The position numbers and the translations under genes are program-made. From a phage, in sequence record PX104378.1: a stretch of DNA of 64,000 nt. One strand, written 5' to 3'. This document shows positions 35,578-42,338 of this stretch, one piece after another. Every line of letters begins with the position of its first letter. Positions within the stretch are counted from its first letter, which is position 1. The notes under the pieces are model-generated. The model had not been told where the DNA came from, did no database searches, and saw only the letters and a list, made by a program, of their open reading frames with translations.

Positions 35578-35912
35578 AATATAGTTCTCCTGAATGGATC
35601 ATCACGTAAATCAATATCTTTTAAGAACTCATCCCATGAATAGCGGATATTGTTCTTAATTCTCCAGATAAGCGCAGGGATTGAACGCTCTCCCATCTGG
35701 AAGTATGGATCGTATGATCCGTATGCCCAATATGCTACTACAATTCCACAATCAGCGCAATAGTATTCTATTTCACTTGCTGGCGACAAAAGTCCATCAA
35801 TATGATCAGTGATCTTGCTTTCGATGTTATGGCTATGACAATCAGGGCAACGGATGCAATGACCTTGTTTATCGTAATTTGACGTTAGCGAATACTTAAA
35901 CAATCTCATCAT
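35574..35912 (-). CDS. Zinc-ribbon protein
   Basis: 112 aa; CIRCPDCHSH ... YYCADCG; ATGA overlap with upstream methyltransferase-like gene. Confidence 0.65.
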   Translation of the reverse strand: MMRLFKYSLTSNYDKQGHCIRCPDCHSHNIESKITDHIDGLLSPASEIEYYCADCGIVVAYWAYGSYDPYFQMGERSIPALIWRIKNNIRYSWDEFLKDIDLRDDPFRRTIL

Positions 35913-36625
35913 AGATCCTTATTGGCTTCAAATACTGCCTTTGCGAATCCTCGCGGGGTAAGTGACCTGATAGTCTTTGTTCTGGTTCCTTTCCCGCCTA
36001 GCTTAGAATGCTGTTTACTGTACCCTTTCTCAATCGGCAACGGTTTCTTTTCTGGCATTATAAAGCCTTGTCCGGTCCATAAGCAAGTCTTTTTCGGGTA
36101 CATATCACGGGCGGCAATATACTCAGGAAACGTAGGATGTATATCATCTTCCGGCAAATAACCGCCATATTCCCACGGGTGGAACATGTAATCAGGCTTA
36201 CGCCACATGCTAGAGATAACGCTTACAGGATTCTCTATCATGTAGGGAACTCCTAGCCATTCACCCAAATAAGCGGTTATTTTAGCTGCCCGTACATCAT
36301 GAACTTGAATTAATGGTCCTTGCTCTCGTTTCTTTCGTTCAAAGTGTGCAGCGCCACTAACAGCTAAATTGGTACACGGTGGGAATGCAAAGATAATATC
36401 CGGTTTCCCCCATTCAAGGTCCATTGCTCTTTCCAGCCAATTCAAATCAATCCATGTGTTTACATAGGTAATGTTTGGATGTTCAAATCGGGTATTATAT
36501 TTTTTGTATGTACCGTGGTCGCCGTCGTCAGCATTGAAGCAGATCACCTTATGACCTGCTTTAGCCCATTCTAGCCCCATTATCCCCGATCCGTCAAAGT
36601 TGCAGAATATTAATTTTTGTTTCAT
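35909..36625 (-). CDS. C5-pyrimidine methyltransferase-fold protein (Dcm-like catalytic core, no obvious target-recognition domain)
   Basis: 238 aa; motif I-like FDGSGIMG, motif IV-like FPPCTNLAVSG (Pro-Cys), ENV-like IENPV. Confidence 0.6.
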   Translation of the reverse strand: MKQKLIFCNFDGSGIMGLEWAKAGHKVICFNADDGDHGTYKKYNTRFEHPNITYVNTWIDLNWLERAMDLEWGKPDIIFAFPPCTNLAVSGAAHFERKKREQGPLIQVHDVRAAKITAYLGEWLGVPYMIENPVSVISSMWRKPDYMFHPWEYGGYLPEDDIHPTFPEYIAARDMYPKKTCLWTGQGFIMPEKKPLPIEKGYSKQHSKLGGKGTRTKTIRSLTPRGFAKAVFEANKDL

Positions 36626-37115: not shown

Positions 37116-37155
37116 TGTTTGATTCTCCTAAGTGGTATCTCGTCTTGATGGTTGT

Positions 37156-37184
37156 ATTGTAGGGGAGTTATCCTCCCCTGTCAA
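37156..37184 (-). promoter_or_regulatory. Early promoter cassette P2 (TTGACA-N17-TACAAT, palindromic spacer)
   Basis: Same architecture upstream of 36864..37115; coords +/-2. Confidence 0.55.
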
Positions 37185-37198
37185 CACTTTTTATAAAA

Positions 37199-37366
37199 TT
37201 ATTTGTTAATTTCTGGTGCGTTGCTAGGATAGTAACCTTCTTTAACTCCGAGGTATTTCGCAACCATCCCTACAATCTTCTGTGCTACTACAATGTCAAA
37301 TTTCAGATAATCTTCGCCGTGGGTTTCAATGATATATGCTTCACATGCTGCTTTAGTCTCGAACAT
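37199..37366 (-). CDS. Small early protein (55 aa), copy A of a duplicated gene; not in ORF table
   Basis: MFETKAACEAYIIETHGEDYLKFDIVVAQKIVGMVAKYLGVKEGYYPSNAPEINK; about 85-90 percent identical to 40461..40628; promoter cassette upstream. Confidence 0.6.
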   Translation of the reverse strand: MFETKAACEAYIIETHGEDYLKFDIVVAQKIVGMVAKYLGVKEGYYPSNAPEINK

Positions 37367-37399
37367 TTTGATTCTCCTATTTCGTTTCGGTATGTGTGT

Positions 37400-37428
37400 A
37401 TTATAGGGGATCTCCCGATCCCCGTCAA
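37400..37428 (-). promoter_or_regulatory. Early promoter cassette P3 (TTGACG-N17-TATAAT, palindromic spacer)
   Basis: Upstream of 37199..37366; conserved leader. Confidence 0.55.
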
Positions 37429-37442
37429 CAACTTTTTTAAAA

Positions 37443-37724: not shown

Positions 37725-37757
37725 TTTTGATTCTCCAGTTCGTTTCGGTATGTGTGT

Positions 37758-37786
37758 ATTATGCTATGTTCTTACTTTGGTGTCAA
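37758..37786 (-). promoter_or_regulatory. Early promoter cassette P4 (TTGACA-N17-CATAAT)
   Basis: Upstream of 37443..37724; conserved leader; no palindrome. Confidence 0.55.
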
Positions 37787-37795
37787 CAACTTTTT

Positions 37796-38065
37796 TTAGA
37801 TATTTTCAGAAATAAATTTTAAAACTTGACGTAAATGTTTCTCATCTTTGATGGTAGCCGGAAGTTCTTCTTTTACTTCCTGTGCAAGATAGATATTTCC
37901 GTTCCAAGTGAAAGATCCGTCTTCGTTTACTCGATAGCTGAACATCCACTCGCAATCATTTTCGATTTCATATACACACAGAAGGGTGTAATCGTTAAAG
38001 CTATTGATTTCAAGGTCGAAGCCGTGACGTTTTGCAAAGTTGGTAGTGGTTTTAGTCAGTGCCAT
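37796..38065 (-). CDS. Small early protein
   Basis: 89 aa; ATG with SD downstream of promoter cassette. Confidence 0.6.
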   Translation of the reverse strand: MALTKTTTNFAKRHGFDLEINSFNDYTLLCVYEIENDCEWMFSYRVNEDGSFTWNGNIYLAQEVKEELPATIKDEKHLRQVLKFISENI

Positions 38066-38105
38066 TGTTTGATTCTCCTAAGTGGTATCTCGTTTCGATG
38101 TGTGT

Positions 38106-38134
38106 ATTATGCTATAGGCTAGACCAGGTGTCAA
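38106..38134 (-). promoter_or_regulatory. Early promoter cassette P5 (TTGACA-N17-CATAAT)
   Basis: Upstream of 37796..38065. Confidence 0.55.
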
Positions 38135-38160
38135 CAACTTTTTTTAATTTTTTTGGAAAT

Positions 38161-38184
38161 AAAAAAGCCGACGCTAAGGTCGGC
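38161..38184 (-). terminator. Intrinsic terminator after 38193..38501
   Basis: Minus-strand hairpin GCCGACC-TTAGC-GTCGGC followed by TTTTTT. Confidence 0.6.
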
Positions 38185-38192
38185 TAATAAAA

Positions 38193-38501
38193 TCATTTAG
38201 ACAAATAATCATTCTGTGCAATCCGGTCGGCGTATGCTGGTGTTACGTCAATCGCAATCACTTTAACGCGTGCTTTCTTGCGACCTGGGTTTTCTCGTAA
38301 CCAGTGCTCATGACCGTGAACATTTTTATACTGCGATGCTTCTTCGAAGGTACGGATCGGACCTGGGTAATCAGCGTAAAGGATCTCTAGATCTTCGGTG
38401 ATGTAAAAATATACATCGTAATTGCTGTTCTCTAGCTTAAGCAGAGACTTTCGGAACATTGGGAGATTTTCGCGGGTAAATTCAAAGATATTATCTTTCA
38501 T
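38193..38501 (-). CDS. HxHxHW-family small protein (paralog 1 of 6)
   Basis: 102 aa; YDVYFYITEDL ... HGHEHWL ... VIAIDV; terminator downstream. Confidence 0.65.
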   Translation of the reverse strand: MKDNIFEFTRENLPMFRKSLLKLENSNYDVYFYITEDLEILYADYPGPIRTFEEASQYKNVHGHEHWLRENPGRKKARVKVIAIDVTPAYADRIAQNDYLSK

Positions 38502-38524
38502 AGTATTATCCTCAATAGTTGGAT

Positions 38525-38546
38525 GAAAAGGGGGCTTAACGCCCCC
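38525..38546 (-). terminator. Intrinsic terminator after 38552..38839
   Basis: Minus-strand hairpin GGGGGCG-TTAA-GCCCCC followed by TTTTC. Confidence 0.55.
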
Positions 38547-38551
38547 ATATA

Positions 38552-38839
38552 TTAAAACAGTCCTTCTTGTACGCCGTAGTAGAGTTCGTCGCTGATAATT
38601 TCATTAATGCGACGGTGTGCATATTCCTGATTTGCGAAGTTGTCAGCAAGTTCTACTTTAGTTTCGCCGTCATGAGTCCATTTAGTGATAACTTTACCAT
38701 CTGCAAATTTGAAGTTGAACTCTTTAGCTACTGCATCGCGTACCAGACGTGCAAACTTGTTGTTACGGATTGCATTATCGGTTTCGTGTGCAGCGTGAGC
38801 AAATTTGTTAACTTTCAGCGTGATAGTGATGTATGCCAT
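38552..38839 (-). CDS. Small early protein
   Basis: 95 aa; ATG with SD downstream of promoter cassette; terminator downstream. Confidence 0.6.
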   Translation of the reverse strand: MAYITITLKVNKFAHAAHETDNAIRNNKFARLVRDAVAKEFNFKFADGKVITKWTHDGETKVELADNFANQEYAHRRINEIISDELYYGVQEGLF

Positions 38840-38885
38840 AATTTGATTCTCCTAGTTAGAAAGTGTATCTCGTTTCGATGGGTGT

Positions 38886-38914
38886 ATTATGCTATACACC
38901 CGATCTTATGTCAA
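38886..38914 (-). promoter_or_regulatory. Early promoter cassette P6 (TTGACA-N17-CATAAT)
   Basis: Upstream of 38552..38839. Confidence 0.55.
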
Positions 38915-38920
38915 CACTTT

Positions 38921-39199
38921 TTATAAAATAATTTTTTGATATTTTTCTATGATGTTCGTGTAATCCACATCAACCGCTATCACCGTTGCTTCGAATCCAC
39001 CGTTTAGCCAATGGCTATGGTCATGATCGTGAAAGAAACCAAGACCAGTACGAAGACCTTCTTTATATTCGGCGCGTACATTTAGATCATCATCGATAAA
39101 CAGATAAAACCATGAATTTTTACTAGGATTGATGATACAACCTTTCAGATTAGGGAGAATATCACGACTAAGAATAAACTTATCACCTACTTTGAACAT
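38921..39199 (-). CDS. HxHxHW-family small protein (paralog 2)
   Basis: Start trimmed to ATG with SD GAGGA (table start is GTG); WFYLFIDDDL ... HDHDHSHWL ... VIAVDV. Confidence 0.65.
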   Translation of the reverse strand: MFKVGDKFILSRDILPNLKGCIINPSKNSWFYLFIDDDLNVRAEYKEGLRTGLGFFHDHDHSHWLNGGFEATVIAVDVDYTNIIEKYQKIIL

Positions 39200-39203
39200 A
39201 ATA

Positions 39204-39524
39204 TTAGTCCTCACTTATAAGGTCAAACCAATTGTTTTTCGCATAATGCTTAATGCGTGCTTGATCTGCTTCTGCTGGTGATAGATTCCATGCAACCACT
39301 ACAACTTCTGACGCATCGTCATCCGTTTCTGATACCCAATGATTATGATTCATACAATTGTTTGCTATCGCGTGAGCAAATGATTTCATCACTGGAGACG
39401 TATAATCATAGTAACGGATTTTCAGATTTTCATCAACGTACAAATAGATCGTATAAGGTTTATATTCAGTAACCAGTAACAGACAGTTACGCAATTCTGG
39501 GAAAATATTTTTAGTTAATTTCAT
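39204..39524 (-). CDS. HxHxHW-family small protein (paralog 3)
   Basis: 106 aa; TIYLYVDENL ... NHNHWV ... VVVAWN; ATGA coupling to upstream gene. Confidence 0.6.
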   Translation of the reverse strand: MKLTKNIFPELRNCLLLVTEYKPYTIYLYVDENLKIRYYDYTSPVMKSFAHAIANNCMNHNHWVSETDDDASEVVVVAWNLSPAEADQARIKHYAKNNWFDLISED

Positions 39525-39727
39525 ATTCTAGTTCTCCGTAATACACGGTAATCCATTTTTTCTTCATACTTTGTATCTTTCCAACACACAATCCCGTTTA
39601 CTGTGCAATCTTTGGAATTGACGAATGATTCATATTGTTCTGCATCTTCCATCATTGCATGAGCGGTCTTTTCATCGAATATATCGCAGATCGCTTTATA
39701 TGCTCGATAATCTTTAAATTTGCTCAT
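39521..39727 (-). CDS. MSKFKDY-family small protein (tandem paralog B)
   Basis: Start trimmed to MSKFKDYRAY; paralogous to adjacent 39730..39939. Confidence 0.55.
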   Translation of the reverse strand: MSKFKDYRAYKAICDIFDEKTAHAMMEDAEQYESFVNSKDCTVNGIVCWKDTKYEEKMDYRVLRRTRI

Positions 39728-39729
39728 AA

Positions 39730-39939
39730 TTAAGACCACTCAAGAGTTTTTGAAAACACATCTATCCATTGTTGAGTATATGCGGTTTCTTTCCATGATA
39801 CAATACCAGTCGAATAATGGTTTTTGTTTCCAGAAAAGGACGGGCATTTTGAGGCATCTTCCATCATCTTTTCGGCGAACTCTGGTTCGTATACTCGCAA
39901 GATCTGTTGATATGCTTTATAATCTTTAAATTTGCTCAT
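39730..39939 (-). CDS. MSKFKDY-family small protein (tandem paralog A)
   Basis: 69 aa; MSKFKDYKAYQQIL..EKMMEDAS; overlaps stop of upstream gene. Confidence 0.55.
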   Translation of the reverse strand: MSKFKDYKAYQQILRVYEPEFAEKMMEDASKCPSFSGNKNHYSTGIVSWKETAYTQQWIDVFSKTLEWS

Positions 39940-40204
39940 AATTGTTAACTACCTTATCAGCTTCTTTTATTGTTTTTACATCAACTGCGATAATCCGTAA
40001 AGGTTCGTCGAAGGTCCACCAATGATCGTGATTATCAGCTTGTGATTTATCACCAAAGGAATCACGAATATCATTTTTACATTTATAGCTAATGTGACCT
40101 TCATAGTCAACATAAAGGTAATTATCAAAAATCGGCGTTTTTAAGATCATACCGAAAAATCTTTCTTTGTGTGTCTTATCCAGCGTTGCAGTAATTCGCA
40201 TCAT
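39926..40204 (-). CDS. HxHxHW-family small protein (paralog 4)
   Basis: 92 aa; NYLYVDYEGH ... DNHDHWW ... IIAVDV. Confidence 0.65.
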   Translation of the reverse strand: MMRITATLDKTHKERFFGMILKTPIFDNYLYVDYEGHISYKCKNDIRDSFGDKSQADNHDHWWTFDEPLRIIAVDVKTIKEADKVVNNYEQI

Positions 40205-40216
40205 AATATATTCCTC

Positions 40217-40396
40217 TTAGAAAGGGATGGTCATTTCTTGAGCTTGTACATTCTCGTTAGGATTAAACTTCATCCAACCGATATTGTCTACCAGCATATG
40301 CACATTTTTATCATATCCTACGTGAGTAGTCAATACTGTATGTGCTTTACCTTCAACGATGATTTCCATGTACTTCTGAACTTCGATAGCTTTCAT
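40217..40396 (-). CDS. Small early protein (59 aa), not in ORF table
   Basis: ATG with SD downstream of promoter-like cassette; MKAIEVQKYMEIIVEGKAHTVLTTHVGYDKNVHMLVDNIGWMKFNPNENVQAQEMTIPF. Confidence 0.5.
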   Translation of the reverse strand: MKAIEVQKYMEIIVEGKAHTVLTTHVGYDKNVHMLVDNIGWMKFNPNENVQAQEMTIPF

Positions 40397-40428
40397 TTTG
40401 ATTCTCCGTTTGTTGTCTTGATGGGAGT

Positions 40429-40457
40429 ATCTTACTACTCCCTTTAATCATTGTCAA
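40429..40457 (-). promoter_or_regulatory. Promoter-like cassette P7 (TTGACA, weak -10 TAAGAT, palindromic spacer)
   Basis: Upstream of 40217..40396; degenerate -10. Confidence 0.4.
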
Positions 40458-40460
40458 CGA

Positions 40461-40628
40461 TTATTTGTTAATTTCCGGTGCGTTGCTTGGATAGTAACCT
40501 TCTTTAACACCCAGATATTTTGCAACCATTCCGGTGATCTTCTGTGCTACTACGATATCGAATTTCAGGTAGTCTTCACCGTGGTTTGCTACAATGTATG
40601 CTTCGCATTCTGCTTTAGTCTGGAACAT
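40461..40628 (-). CDS. Small early protein (55 aa), copy B of duplicated gene
   Basis: Start trimmed to MFQTKAECEAY (table start lies inside the promoter); near-identical to 37199..37366. Confidence 0.6.
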   Translation of the reverse strand: MFQTKAECEAYIVANHGEDYLKFDIVVAQKITGMVAKYLGVKEGYYPSNAPEINK

Positions 40629-40662
40629 TTTTGATTCTCCTATATCTCGTTGGTATGTGTGC

Positions 40663-40692
40663 ATTATAGGGGATCGGTGACCCCCCTGTCAA
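40663..40692 (-). promoter_or_regulatory. Early promoter cassette P8 (TTGACA-N18-TATAAT, GC-rich spacer)
   Basis: Upstream of 40461..40628; conserved leader. Confidence 0.55.
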
Positions 40693-40699
40693 CAACTTT

Positions 40700-41002
40700 T
40701 TATTCTTCGTCTTTATCTTTATATGCGTATTTCATAAATTTGTCTGCCACTTCGTCCGCGTTTTCAGGTTCTACGTCTGACGCTAGGACAACAGCTAGTT
40801 CGGTTTTGTCGTTTCCATCATACCAATGATTATGAGTGTCGTTTTCTTCGATATAAAACGAATCATTTGGATATGGGCGACAATATACGTCTAAATTCCC
40901 ATCGATATAAAAGATCCAATCCGAATACAAAATGATTGTTTTAGCCAGATTTTTATTGTCTCTTACAAAAGGTTCCGCGACAAATAGCTTAGTTTGTTCC
41001 AT
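40700..41002 (-). CDS. HxHxHW-family small protein (paralog 5)
   Basis: Start trimmed to ATG after SD GAGGAG (MEQTKLF); IFYIDGNLDV ... DTHNHWY ... VVLASDV. Confidence 0.6.
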   Translation of the reverse strand: MEQTKLFVAEPFVRDNKNLAKTIILYSDWIFYIDGNLDVYCRPYPNDSFYIEENDTHNHWYDGNDKTELAVVLASDVEPENADEVADKFMKYAYKDKDEE

Positions 41003-41018
41003 AGTAATCTCCTCAAAA

Positions 41019-41210
41019 TTATACAACTTCGTAAACTTCCCAATGTCCAACACCGGAACGCTTAACGAAAAGGTTTTCTTTGATGTTATTCATAAACGTC
41101 TGGATGGATTTAATGCGGTTGGAAGGTTTCCAGTCTTCGTTGGCATTGCGGCGATACATAATAACATTACCAGTTCTCTTATATTCAGCAACCATTTTAA
41201 GACCACACAT
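41019..41210 (-). CDS. Small hypothetical protein
   Basis: 63 aa; ATG with SD GAGGA. Confidence 0.45.
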   Translation of the reverse strand: MCGLKMVAEYKRTGNVIMYRRNANEDWKPSNRIKSIQTFMNNIKENLFVKRSGVGHWEVYEVV

Positions 41211-41267
41211 AATATTATCCTCAATTTATGGGAGAGTATTACCCCTCCCAATGATTGTTATATTACA

Positions 41268-41588
41268 TCACACAAAATGGCGTTTCAATGCTTCTTTTGC
41301 GGTTCCGCTAAGACTTTCGATCTCGCCTGGCATAACATCAACTGCCAGAACTTCTACAACATCCTCTGACCCCAACCAGTGAGTATGACCTTTGTAGAAC
41401 TTGATAACCAGACTACCTTCCTCATCCCATTTAACGCTATCGCTAGCCCACCACACATCACCGTCGATAAAGTTGATGTAAAGCACACTACGCCACATTG
41501 AATTAATTACTTTCAATACTGCGCCTTTCATATCTTCCACGGTGTGGTCTTCCATTTTGAAGACCTCGCCTACCTGAACTTTTGCCAT
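41268..41588 (-). CDS. HxHxHW-family small protein (paralog 6)
   Basis: 106 aa; LYINFIDGDV ... GHTHWL ... VLAVDV; ATG with SD AGGTGA. Confidence 0.65.
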   Translation of the reverse strand: MAKVQVGEVFKMEDHTVEDMKGAVLKVINSMWRSVLYINFIDGDVWWASDSVKWDEEGSLVIKFYKGHTHWLGSEDVVEVLAVDVMPGEIESLSGTAKEALKRHFV

Positions 41589-41785: not shown

Positions 41786-41819
41786 GTTTGATTCTCCTAG
41801 TTCGTTTCGGTATGTGTGT

Positions 41820-41848
41820 AGTATAGGGGATCACCGATCCCCTGTCAA
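41820..41848 (-). promoter_or_regulatory. Early promoter cassette P9 (TTGACA-N17-TATACT, palindromic spacer)
   Basis: Upstream of 41606..41785; conserved leader. Confidence 0.55.
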
Positions 41849-41861
41849 CAACTTTTTTGAA

Positions 41862-42338
41862 TTATTTTTCTTGATGCTCGCGCTCGTACTTTTCGAAATA
41901 AAATTCTACTGGCTGGTCGTGGATTGACAGTAAGCCAAAGCGTTTAGCCGCTCGCAACCCCATATTGCGCTGAATGTACTTCTGGAAGTTCTCGCGTATA
42001 CACTTACGCCAGTATTCTAAGCCCATACAGCTTTTATAAAGATTGCATTGCACACACGCCGGATTCATGTTATCAAGTATATCATGCTCCGGTTTATGCA
42101 TTCCTACAACCTTATACTTCCACGATCCATCATCATTACGGGCAATTCGTCCATTTTCATCATAGACTACTTTTGAGCGTCGTAATACTGGTTTGATGTG
42201 GTCTGCGTGCCAGCGATCCCCTAGTTCCTCGCCACAATAGGCACAACGTCCACCATATTTCATTTTCAGGATCTGGCGTTGCTCTTTCTTTGACAATTTT
42301 TTAGGTTTAGGGGCTTTCGCCCCTTCATTATCACACAT
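41862..42338 (-). CDS. HNH endonuclease
   Basis: 158 aa; CAYCGEEL ... HADHIKPV ... CVQCNLYK; 8-nt overlap with DNA ligase stop. Confidence 0.75.
   Translation of the reverse strand: MCDNEGAKAPKPKKLSKKEQRQILKMKYGGRCAYCGEELGDRWHADHIKPVLRRSKVVYDENGRIARNDDGSWKYKVVGMHKPEHDILDNMNPACVQCNLYKSCMGLEYWRKCIRENFQKYIQRNMGLRAAKRFGLLSIHDQPVEFYFEKYEREHQEK

Follow-up and report, generated by a model that had tools for sequence, protein, structure and literature searches.

Promoter-early stem-loop (PeSL) elements are known from the phages RB49 and phi1, in which they flank cassettes of small early genes (Arbiol et al. 2010, PMC2839356). That study treats the open reading frames (ORFs) of the region as unrelated, mobile ORFans; the word "paralog" is absent from it, and the ORFs considered here are not discussed individually. 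The PHROGs database holds the same proteins as five separate unannotated families (phrog_9345, phrog_17255, phrog_15972, phrog_15965 and phrog_16486). In the present work, we analyzed the corresponding locus in a stretch of phage DNA of 64,000 nucleotides (nt; sequence record PX104378.1), which in its whole length is referred to as the window. Six small genes in an array spanning positions 38193-41588, each named p plus its start coordinate, are genuine, anciently duplicated paralogs that form a single family of small proteins, with an H-x-H-W core, that has been kept by purifying selection.

An original prediction, read from the DNA letters without database searches, had proposed six paralogous genes in this interval, encoding proteins of 92-106 amino acids (aa). 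All six ORFs were confirmed exactly where they had been placed, on the minus strand, each terminated by a stop codon and preceded by a Shine-Dalgarno-like GAGG or GGAG. In a MAFFT alignment, the six proteins showed pairwise identities of 24-31%. Leave-one-out profiles, each built from five members, recovered the sixth at E values of 2e-6 to 1e-13, and the best non-member among the 593 six-frame ORFs of the window reached E 0.015. The string H.HW was seen six times against the 0.55 expected from composition (52,011 residues of window ORFs), once in each gene and nowhere else; the shared motifs are significant, and the alignment statistics that might have dissolved the proposed family upheld it instead. 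Each of the six genes matched its PHROG end to end (E 1e-49 to 1e-71). The genes fall into five PHROGs, all of "unknown function", and cross-hits to phrog_9345 join all six. Profile searches found no seventh member in the window, and hhalign comparisons with three neighbouring small ORFs were negative. Among these, the 89-aa ORF at 37796-38065 had been considered as a seventh member lacking the motif and was rejected at an hhalign probability of 0.3%; the lead had been a borderline BFVD match (E 0.03) of the phage JSE protein C4MZ33, whose orthology to the 89-aa ORF was assumed from gene order. The neighbouring 93-aa and 95-aa ORFs were rejected likewise.

The signature proved shorter than had been thought. 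The original prediction described a conserved H-x-H-x-H-W, interpreted as a metal-binding histidine cluster and flanked by two conserved blocks, and every motif string that it quoted was found. However, in a census of 101 family sequences, representing 66 distinct contexts, the "third" His (position -4) occurred in 17% of the contexts and in two of the six paralogs, and this position varied between H, Y, F and Q even within the orthologs of a single gene. Conservation was 100% for the second His and for the Trp, and 95% for the first His, with Ser twice and Asp once in its place. The residue between the two His was N, T, D, E or S (Ile once), and the residue following the Trp was hydrophobic. 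Because the third His varies and occurs in so few contexts and paralogs, we take the family-wide signature to be H-x-H-W, not H-x-H-x-H-W. The flanking blocks are present, but in two paralogs the first has Thr or Asn in place of Asp, and in one paralog the last reads VVAWNL. Other fairly conserved positions, namely, the aromatic strand Y-L-Y-I-D, the strand V-I-A-V-D-V and an A-D pair in the C-terminal helix, include no invariant polar residue. Within ortholog groups, the variable positions are those of the termini, of the loop that precedes the motif and of the helix surfaces, and the core strands and H-x-H-W are unchanged. With two His, one of them replaceable by Ser or Asp, and no other invariant potential ligand, the metal-binding cluster does not stand in the form proposed; metal binding by the family is possible but not indicated.

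The proteins are soluble and mostly acidic, with isoelectric points (pI) of 4.3-6.3, and the six sequences contain no obvious hydrophobic membrane-spanning or signal segment. Cysteines are few and none is conserved, and p40700 has two His in total. AlphaFold2 (AF2) models were obtained for p38193, with a predicted local distance difference test score (pLDDT) of 82.8 and a predicted template modelling score (pTM) of 0.79, and for p38921 (pLDDT 85.6, pTM 0.79), and both had the same topology. In these models, the N-terminal part comprises a short strand, a short helix and three further strands, which together make a four-strand beta-meander, followed by a loop or helix that is variable and modelled with lower confidence. 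The H-x-H-W then opens a short helical turn that leads into strand five (VIAVDV), and a helix forms the C-terminal end. Other paralogs, represented by BFVD models, superpose on these at template modelling (TM) scores of 0.67-0.75 and E values of 9e-8 to 4e-4. On this basis, the family is predicted to have a common alpha/beta fold.

No well-characterised family that would hold all six proteins emerged from Pfam, NCBIfam or PDB profiles: Pfam and NCBIfam gave nothing consistent among 24 members, and PDB sequence profiles gave nothing consistent for the family. The same 24 members had 0 matches among the PADLOC defence-system models. Profile searches gave no match to enzyme families, and structure searches with the predicted models gave no significant match. 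A single weak Pfam match, to T4_Y03C (E 0.1, one of the 24 members), was at chance level and was discarded; the T4 genes near the ligase are not in that family.

The region is 92-98% identical to the genomes of Krischvirus, the RB49-like T4-type coliphages (for example, JK32, Brandy, PHB13, phi1, GEC-3S and ECD7), and we accordingly assign the phage to the RB49-like Krischvirus and not to T4. All genes under the Krischvirus DNA match are annotated as "hypothetical". In tblastn searches, each paralog type was found in 54-57 phage records of GenBank, all carrying an organism name of Escherichia, Shigella, Enterobacteria or Krischvirus, a set that overlaps the one from the DNA search. All six types were present in the same order in seven of the seven genomes inspected, and across these genomes the median ratio of nonsynonymous to synonymous substitution rates (dN/dS) was 0.10-0.25 for the six types. 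Older allele classes were seen for p40700 (60-80% identical in 35 records), p39926 (54% in five, including phi1) and p39204 (54% in three, including JSE). Presence/absence polymorphism between close relatives was not seen; the differences were allele replacement and occasional frameshifts. Broken copies are represented by the p38193 type, which has a frameshift in JSE and is given just 85 aa in the annotation of kvi, and by a few truncated metagenomic copies. The six types are stably kept by purifying selection in nearly every Krischvirus genome.

Beyond cultured phages, a word-indexed search of 5.8 billion proteins returned orthologs on Krischvirus-sized contigs only, and its repetition with an enlarged alignment gave nothing new; a search of IMG/VR with the p40700-type alignment returned two Krischvirus-like contigs only. 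A HMMER profile search of 1.84 billion cluster representatives gave 22 matches at E <= 1e-3, 20 of them genuine members, which are small proteins of 68-128 aa plus one tandem fusion of 203 aa. The distant metagenomic members each best match one type (p40700-type, six; p39204-type, four; p41268-type, two; p39926-type, one). The natural fusion lies at 823-1434 of the 2.1-kb metagenome contig SRR8048117_15661, has an HNHW in each of its two domains and stands beside three single-domain members, so that this contig carries five family domains in an array. A 20-kb T4-like contig with about 72% DNA identity to Krischvirus has two members in the same ligase-to-alt interval. Because the distant relatives each map to a single paralog type, the duplications are older than the genus, and the paralog types predate the split from its sister lineages. 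The "hypervariable early region" of the original prediction is thus correct for the surroundings, a hyperplastic and recombinationally active region with PeSL early promoters, but not for the six genes, which are not hypervariable given their occurrence in 54-57 records, their low dN/dS and the age of their types.

The remaining two profile matches, P0097 (1034 aa, E 8e-5) and P0098 (1425 aa, E 2e-4), each consist of five weak repeat-summed matches in a long repeat protein and were judged spurious. One of the two has repeat units with "GHSHTWKD", and the recurring strand/H-x-H-x-W/strand pattern of P0097 is curious. Additionally, an ortholog of p41268 (P0159, WP_239815954.1, on a 163-kb contig) is filed in NCBI as Bacillus atrophaeus, which is almost certainly a Krischvirus genome contaminating the assembly.

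In the order in which they are read on the minus strand, the first of the six genes is p41268 (41268..41588, 106 aa), with its HTHW at 41376-41387. It is the ortholog of phi1 ORF208, belongs to phrog_16486 (E 4e-71), occurs in 56 phage records and has the dN/dS of 0.10. The next, p40700 (40700..41002, minus strand, 100 aa, pI 4.3), has an acidic C-terminal tail and an HNHW at 40823-40834; the ortholog of phi1 ORF206 and a member of phrog_15965, it is present in 56 records in two allele classes (dN/dS 0.20). In Escherichia phage FL04, the 63-aa gene upstream is annotated as an in-frame fusion to the p40700 ortholog (P0150, 172 aa); the fusion is either real, through a frameshift, or a product of faulty sequencing or annotation. 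For p39926 (39926..40204, minus strand, 92 aa; HDHW at 40019-40030; phrog_15972; dN/dS 0.15), phi1 ORF203 is the positional equivalent, an allele at 54% identity. The 106-aa protein of p39204 (39204..39524, minus strand; HNHW at 39336-39347) is orthologous to phi1 ORF200 and belongs to phrog_9345, with a dN/dS of 0.22; its closest paralog is p38193 (pairwise E 2e-12), and its start overlaps the stop of the upstream gene in an ATGA. Only 4 nt separate its stop from the start of p38921 (38921..39199, minus strand, 92 aa), which carries HSHW at 39008-39019 with HDHD before it, is the ortholog of phi1 ORF199 and RB49p199 and falls into phrog_17255 (dN/dS 0.21). The last gene, p38193 (38193..38501, minus strand, 102 aa; HEHW at 38301-38312), is the ortholog of phi1 ORF197 and, like p39204, is assigned to phrog_9345 (dN/dS 0.25).

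On the minus strand, the locus runs from the gp31 co-chaperonin gene through a 30.3-like gene, the DNA ligase gene and a gene for a small HNH protein into about 20 small genes, among them the six paralogs, followed by a C5-cytosine methyltransferase gene and the gene for the Alt ADP-ribosyltransferase. The neighbouring small genes all have the PHROG label "unknown function". Genes in this interval are separated by repeated cassettes of 70-75 nt that consist of an AT-rich tract, TTGACA, a G+C stem-loop between the -35 and -10 elements, a -10 hexamer and the Shine-Dalgarno sequence GGAGAATCAAA. These correspond to the PeSL elements described by Arbiol et al. (PMC2839356). They fall into two repeat families, D1 and D2, and the PeSL and variant promoters score 10-12 out of 12 as sigma-70 promoters. 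The cassette at 41787..41861 (minus strand; family D2, 11/12) has TTGACA, the stem-loop GGGGATCGGTGATCCCC, TATACT and a Shine-Dalgarno sequence, and is predicted to drive, in this order, a 59-aa gene, p41268, the 63-aa gene and p40700. Directly 3' of the p40700 stop lies the cassette 40630..40704 (minus strand), a 12/12 sigma-70 match that corresponds to phi1 PeSL206/205, for which about 13,000 Miller units of lacZ were recorded in a reporter assay (PMC2839356). A variant promoter with a hairpin at 40429..40457 (minus strand, 10/12) precedes the 59-aa gene upstream of p39926. The cassette at 38865..38934 (minus strand; family D1, 11/12), directly 3' of the p38921 stop, is predicted to drive the 95-aa gene and, by read-through, p38193. 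The latter gene has no promoter of its own and is bounded by terminator-like G+C hairpins with T runs, one at 38530..38546 (minus strand), between the 95-aa gene and p38193, and one at 38166..38185 (minus strand), directly 3' of p38193; therefore, its expression would depend on read-through from the cassette at 38865-38934. Because the cassette at 40630-40704 corresponds to phi1 PeSL206/205, which is active in the reporter, and PeSL promoters are present throughout, we infer with good support that the array is expressed early.

Several further features of the locus were observed. PeSL cassettes dot the whole ligase-to-methylase interval on the minus strand (37135-37204, 37367-37441, 37725-37806, 38085-38154, 38865-38934, 40630-40704 and 41787-41861). 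The array is flanked by the C5-cytosine DNA methyltransferase gene at 35909-36625 (PPC motif; Dcm in the annotation of relatives) and by the gene for the 158-aa HNH-motif protein at 41862-42338; the latter gene overlaps, at its start, the end of the DNA ligase gene. Two copies of a 55-aa gene (phrog_8009) lie at 37199-37366 and 40461-40631, with 85% identity over 172 nt; each immediately follows a PeSL, and the pair has the look of a rather recent duplication, mediated by PeSL, within this region. Between p39926 and p39204 lies an unrelated tandem paralog pair (39521-39727 and 39730-39939; 68 and 69 aa), both in phrog_8471 and both starting with MSKFKDY. Phages phi1, kvi, PHB13 and SAP have an extra 312-nt gene (phi1 ORF210) between the HNH gene and the 59-aa gene, at which place (41786-41861) the window has only a PeSL; the ORF210 cassette is the one that forms "PeSL210 mini-circles" (Arbiol et al. 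2010, PMC2839356).

We propose that the six genes encode early, non-enzymatic binding proteins with separate host or phage partners. We give this reading as a whole a probability of about 45%; its descriptive part is a near certainty, and our confidence in the mechanism is low. The six genes arose by old tandem duplications within the ligase-to-alt hyperplastic region of Krischvirus and lie behind sigma-70-type PeSL early promoters, and their proteins would be made in the first minutes of infection. The conserved hydrophobic strands and the H-x-H-W turn may serve as a scaffold or a shared contact site, with the turn as a structural keystone or as a shared ligand or metal site, and the diverged surfaces and the variable loop beside the motif may give each paralog its own host or phage partner. 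The set would act as a standing, rather than fast-evolving, group of accessory factors that modulate the host or counter its defences; the role of effectors in host takeover or anti-defence, suggested by the original prediction, is a reasonable guess. As a conjecture, a metal ion or a ligand could be bound by the two His, perhaps between the subunits of a dimer. We favor binding proteins over an enzyme because a conserved scaffold carries diversified surfaces and only two or three positions are invariant, and a non-enzymatic role because the first His is replaceable, no Cys or acid is conserved and no enzyme family matches. Physical association of family domains is seen in the natural tandem fusion. 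Several points weigh against this proposal. The low dN/dS is unlike that of a classic arms-race effector, and the invariant H-x-H could equally mark a metal or catalytic site. The expression timing rests on the promoter type and on a reporter assay in a related phage. Moreover, the p38193 type is broken in JSE, and therefore at least that copy is dispensable in the laboratory.

Other explanations were weighed against the same evidence. The proteins might be metalloproteins in which Zn, Ni or Fe is coordinated by the H-x-H jointly with either the VDV-strand Asp or a second subunit, so that they would be small metal-dependent enzymes or factors for metal sequestering or delivery. The spacing of the two His, at i and i+2 beside a conserved turn with N, D, E, S or T between them, would suit such a site, as would the extra alternating His of two paralogs (HGHEHW and HDHDHSHW), the D or H at position -4 in 26 of the 66 contexts and the mostly conserved Asp in the following strand. 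However, Ser or Asp replaces the first His in three contexts, the extra His is not constant between orthologs, and many members have Asn or Gly in place of the strand Asp. In addition, p40700 contains only two His, and the family has no conserved Cys. A structural match to a metallo-beta-lactamase (MBL) was not reproduced with a second model, and a protein of 100 aa is too small for that fold; matches to the HIT, cupin, MBL or 2H families were not obtained either. We consider the metalloprotein explanation unlikely, although it deserves some weight. A different question is why the set is fixed at six, which would be explained if the paralogs were subunits of one hetero-oligomer, such as a ring built from small beta-barrel domains. 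Throughout the genus, all six types are present in constant number and order, two family domains are naturally fused in tandem, and p39204 and p38921 adjoin at a distance of 4 nt. Nevertheless, this interval contains just two members in the sister-lineage contig, JSE and kvi retain the other genes although their p38193 is disrupted or shortened, respectively, the array is divided among three or four transcription units, and the structural matches are not significant, which makes a single complex improbable.

A role in nucleic acid binding through a KOW/SH3-like N-terminal barrel, acting on transcription or RNA, is suggested by one metagenomic ortholog (P0067), labelled "KOW2-KOW3 domains of Spt5" by an annotation pipeline, and by the N-termini of p38921 and p41268 ("VGDxF...LKGxI"), which are KOW-like by eye. 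However, Pfam KOW was not matched by any of 24 members even at E <= 5, there was no PDB sequence-profile match, and neither Pfam nor PDB profiles reproduced the Spt5 label. Four of the six paralogs lack the VGD motif, and the proteins are acidic. We therefore regard KOW-type binders as a very doubtful explanation. The notion that the family is an artefact, composed either of chance motif matches among unrelated ORFs or of non-functional filler carried along by PeSL recombination, could draw on the recombination-prone, ORFan-rich character of the region (PMC2839356) and on pairwise identities of just 24-31%. It is refuted by the leave-one-out recoveries, the motif excess, the purifying dN/dS in all six groups, the presence of the genes in 54-57 genomes and the agreement of confident AF2 models, and we leave it practically no chance. 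Finally, a bolder form of our own proposal would combine a new fold, an invariant His/Trp site for a small ligand (a metal ion or a nucleotide-type signal) and six paralogs, possibly pairing, in a standing multi-target counter-defence or host-takeover battery peculiar to RB49-like T4-type phages; we see this combination as a long shot.

Krischvirus are common coliphages used in therapy cocktails, with roughly a quarter of their genes in hyperplastic regions and without an assigned function, and the six genes have been in GenBank since RB49 was sequenced. Our analysis turns six "hypothetical proteins" from five PHROGs into one family with a testable invariant site, confident models, ortholog groups and likely early expression. 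That six copies have been maintained under purifying selection since their ancient divergence argues for a useful role of each, and the array, being compact and tractable, lends itself to deletion and defence-panel screens. Should the family be a ligand- or metal-binding scaffold of new fold, it would be a new class of small phage effectors; if not, it stays a well-delimited piece of phage dark matter.

Compared with known systems, the locus has counterparts in position and in kind. The expectation that the family would have no place among T4 proteins was borne out: no T4 homolog was found in the ligase/alt locus (best E of the family profile, 3.7) or in the profile search of 1.84 billion proteins. 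The equivalent T4 interval is alike in position, with small early genes next to DNA ligase and alt, but between ligase and alt it has a single 62-aa gene, alt.1 (Pfam Phage_blade), and the Pfam families of the T4 30.x genes are unrelated to ours. Literature searches turned up nothing that recognises the six genes as one family, assigns them a function or deals with Krischvirus paralogs or anti-defence genes, and neither the defence-system models of PADLOC nor PHROGs places them in a catalogued defence or anti-defence family. Small inhibitor and immunity proteins of phages or bacteria, about 80-100 aa long, such as the Tis1 immunity protein (6ox6_B), AcrIIA7 (8kbi_A) and Tad2 (9eib_A), are a near comparison, with no significant structural match. 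Histidine-triad (HIT) proteins are also small alpha+beta proteins, and they resemble the family in the alternating-His string before a hydrophobic residue (HGHEHWL, HDHSHWL); however, the H-phi-H-phi-H-phi-phi motif and the HIT fold that define this superfamily are not those seen here. Similarly, the family lacks the H-x-H-x-D-H motif and the alpha-beta/beta-alpha sandwich of at least about 200 aa that characterise the metallo-beta-lactamases, and it shows neither the KOW profile nor the significant KOW-barrel match expected of KOW/SH3-like (NusG/Spt5) proteins.

The PeSL-flanked early ORFan cassettes of RB49 and phi1 (PMC2839356) are the same locus (phi1 ORFs 197-208), with the same promoter and stem-loop cassettes. 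In contrast to the mobile ORFans described there, the six genes form one related, syntenic set that occurs almost throughout the genus, and they are conserved residents rather than shuffled cargo. What the PHROGs split apart is described here as one family, which is defined by its H-x-H-W core, comprises six stably kept types and extends to relatives beyond the cultured genus. T4-type hyperplastic regions are already known to carry small early accessory genes set between PeSL cassettes; what is new is the recognition among them of a near-core family of six anciently duplicated types, with its own predicted fold and an invariant H-x-H-W.

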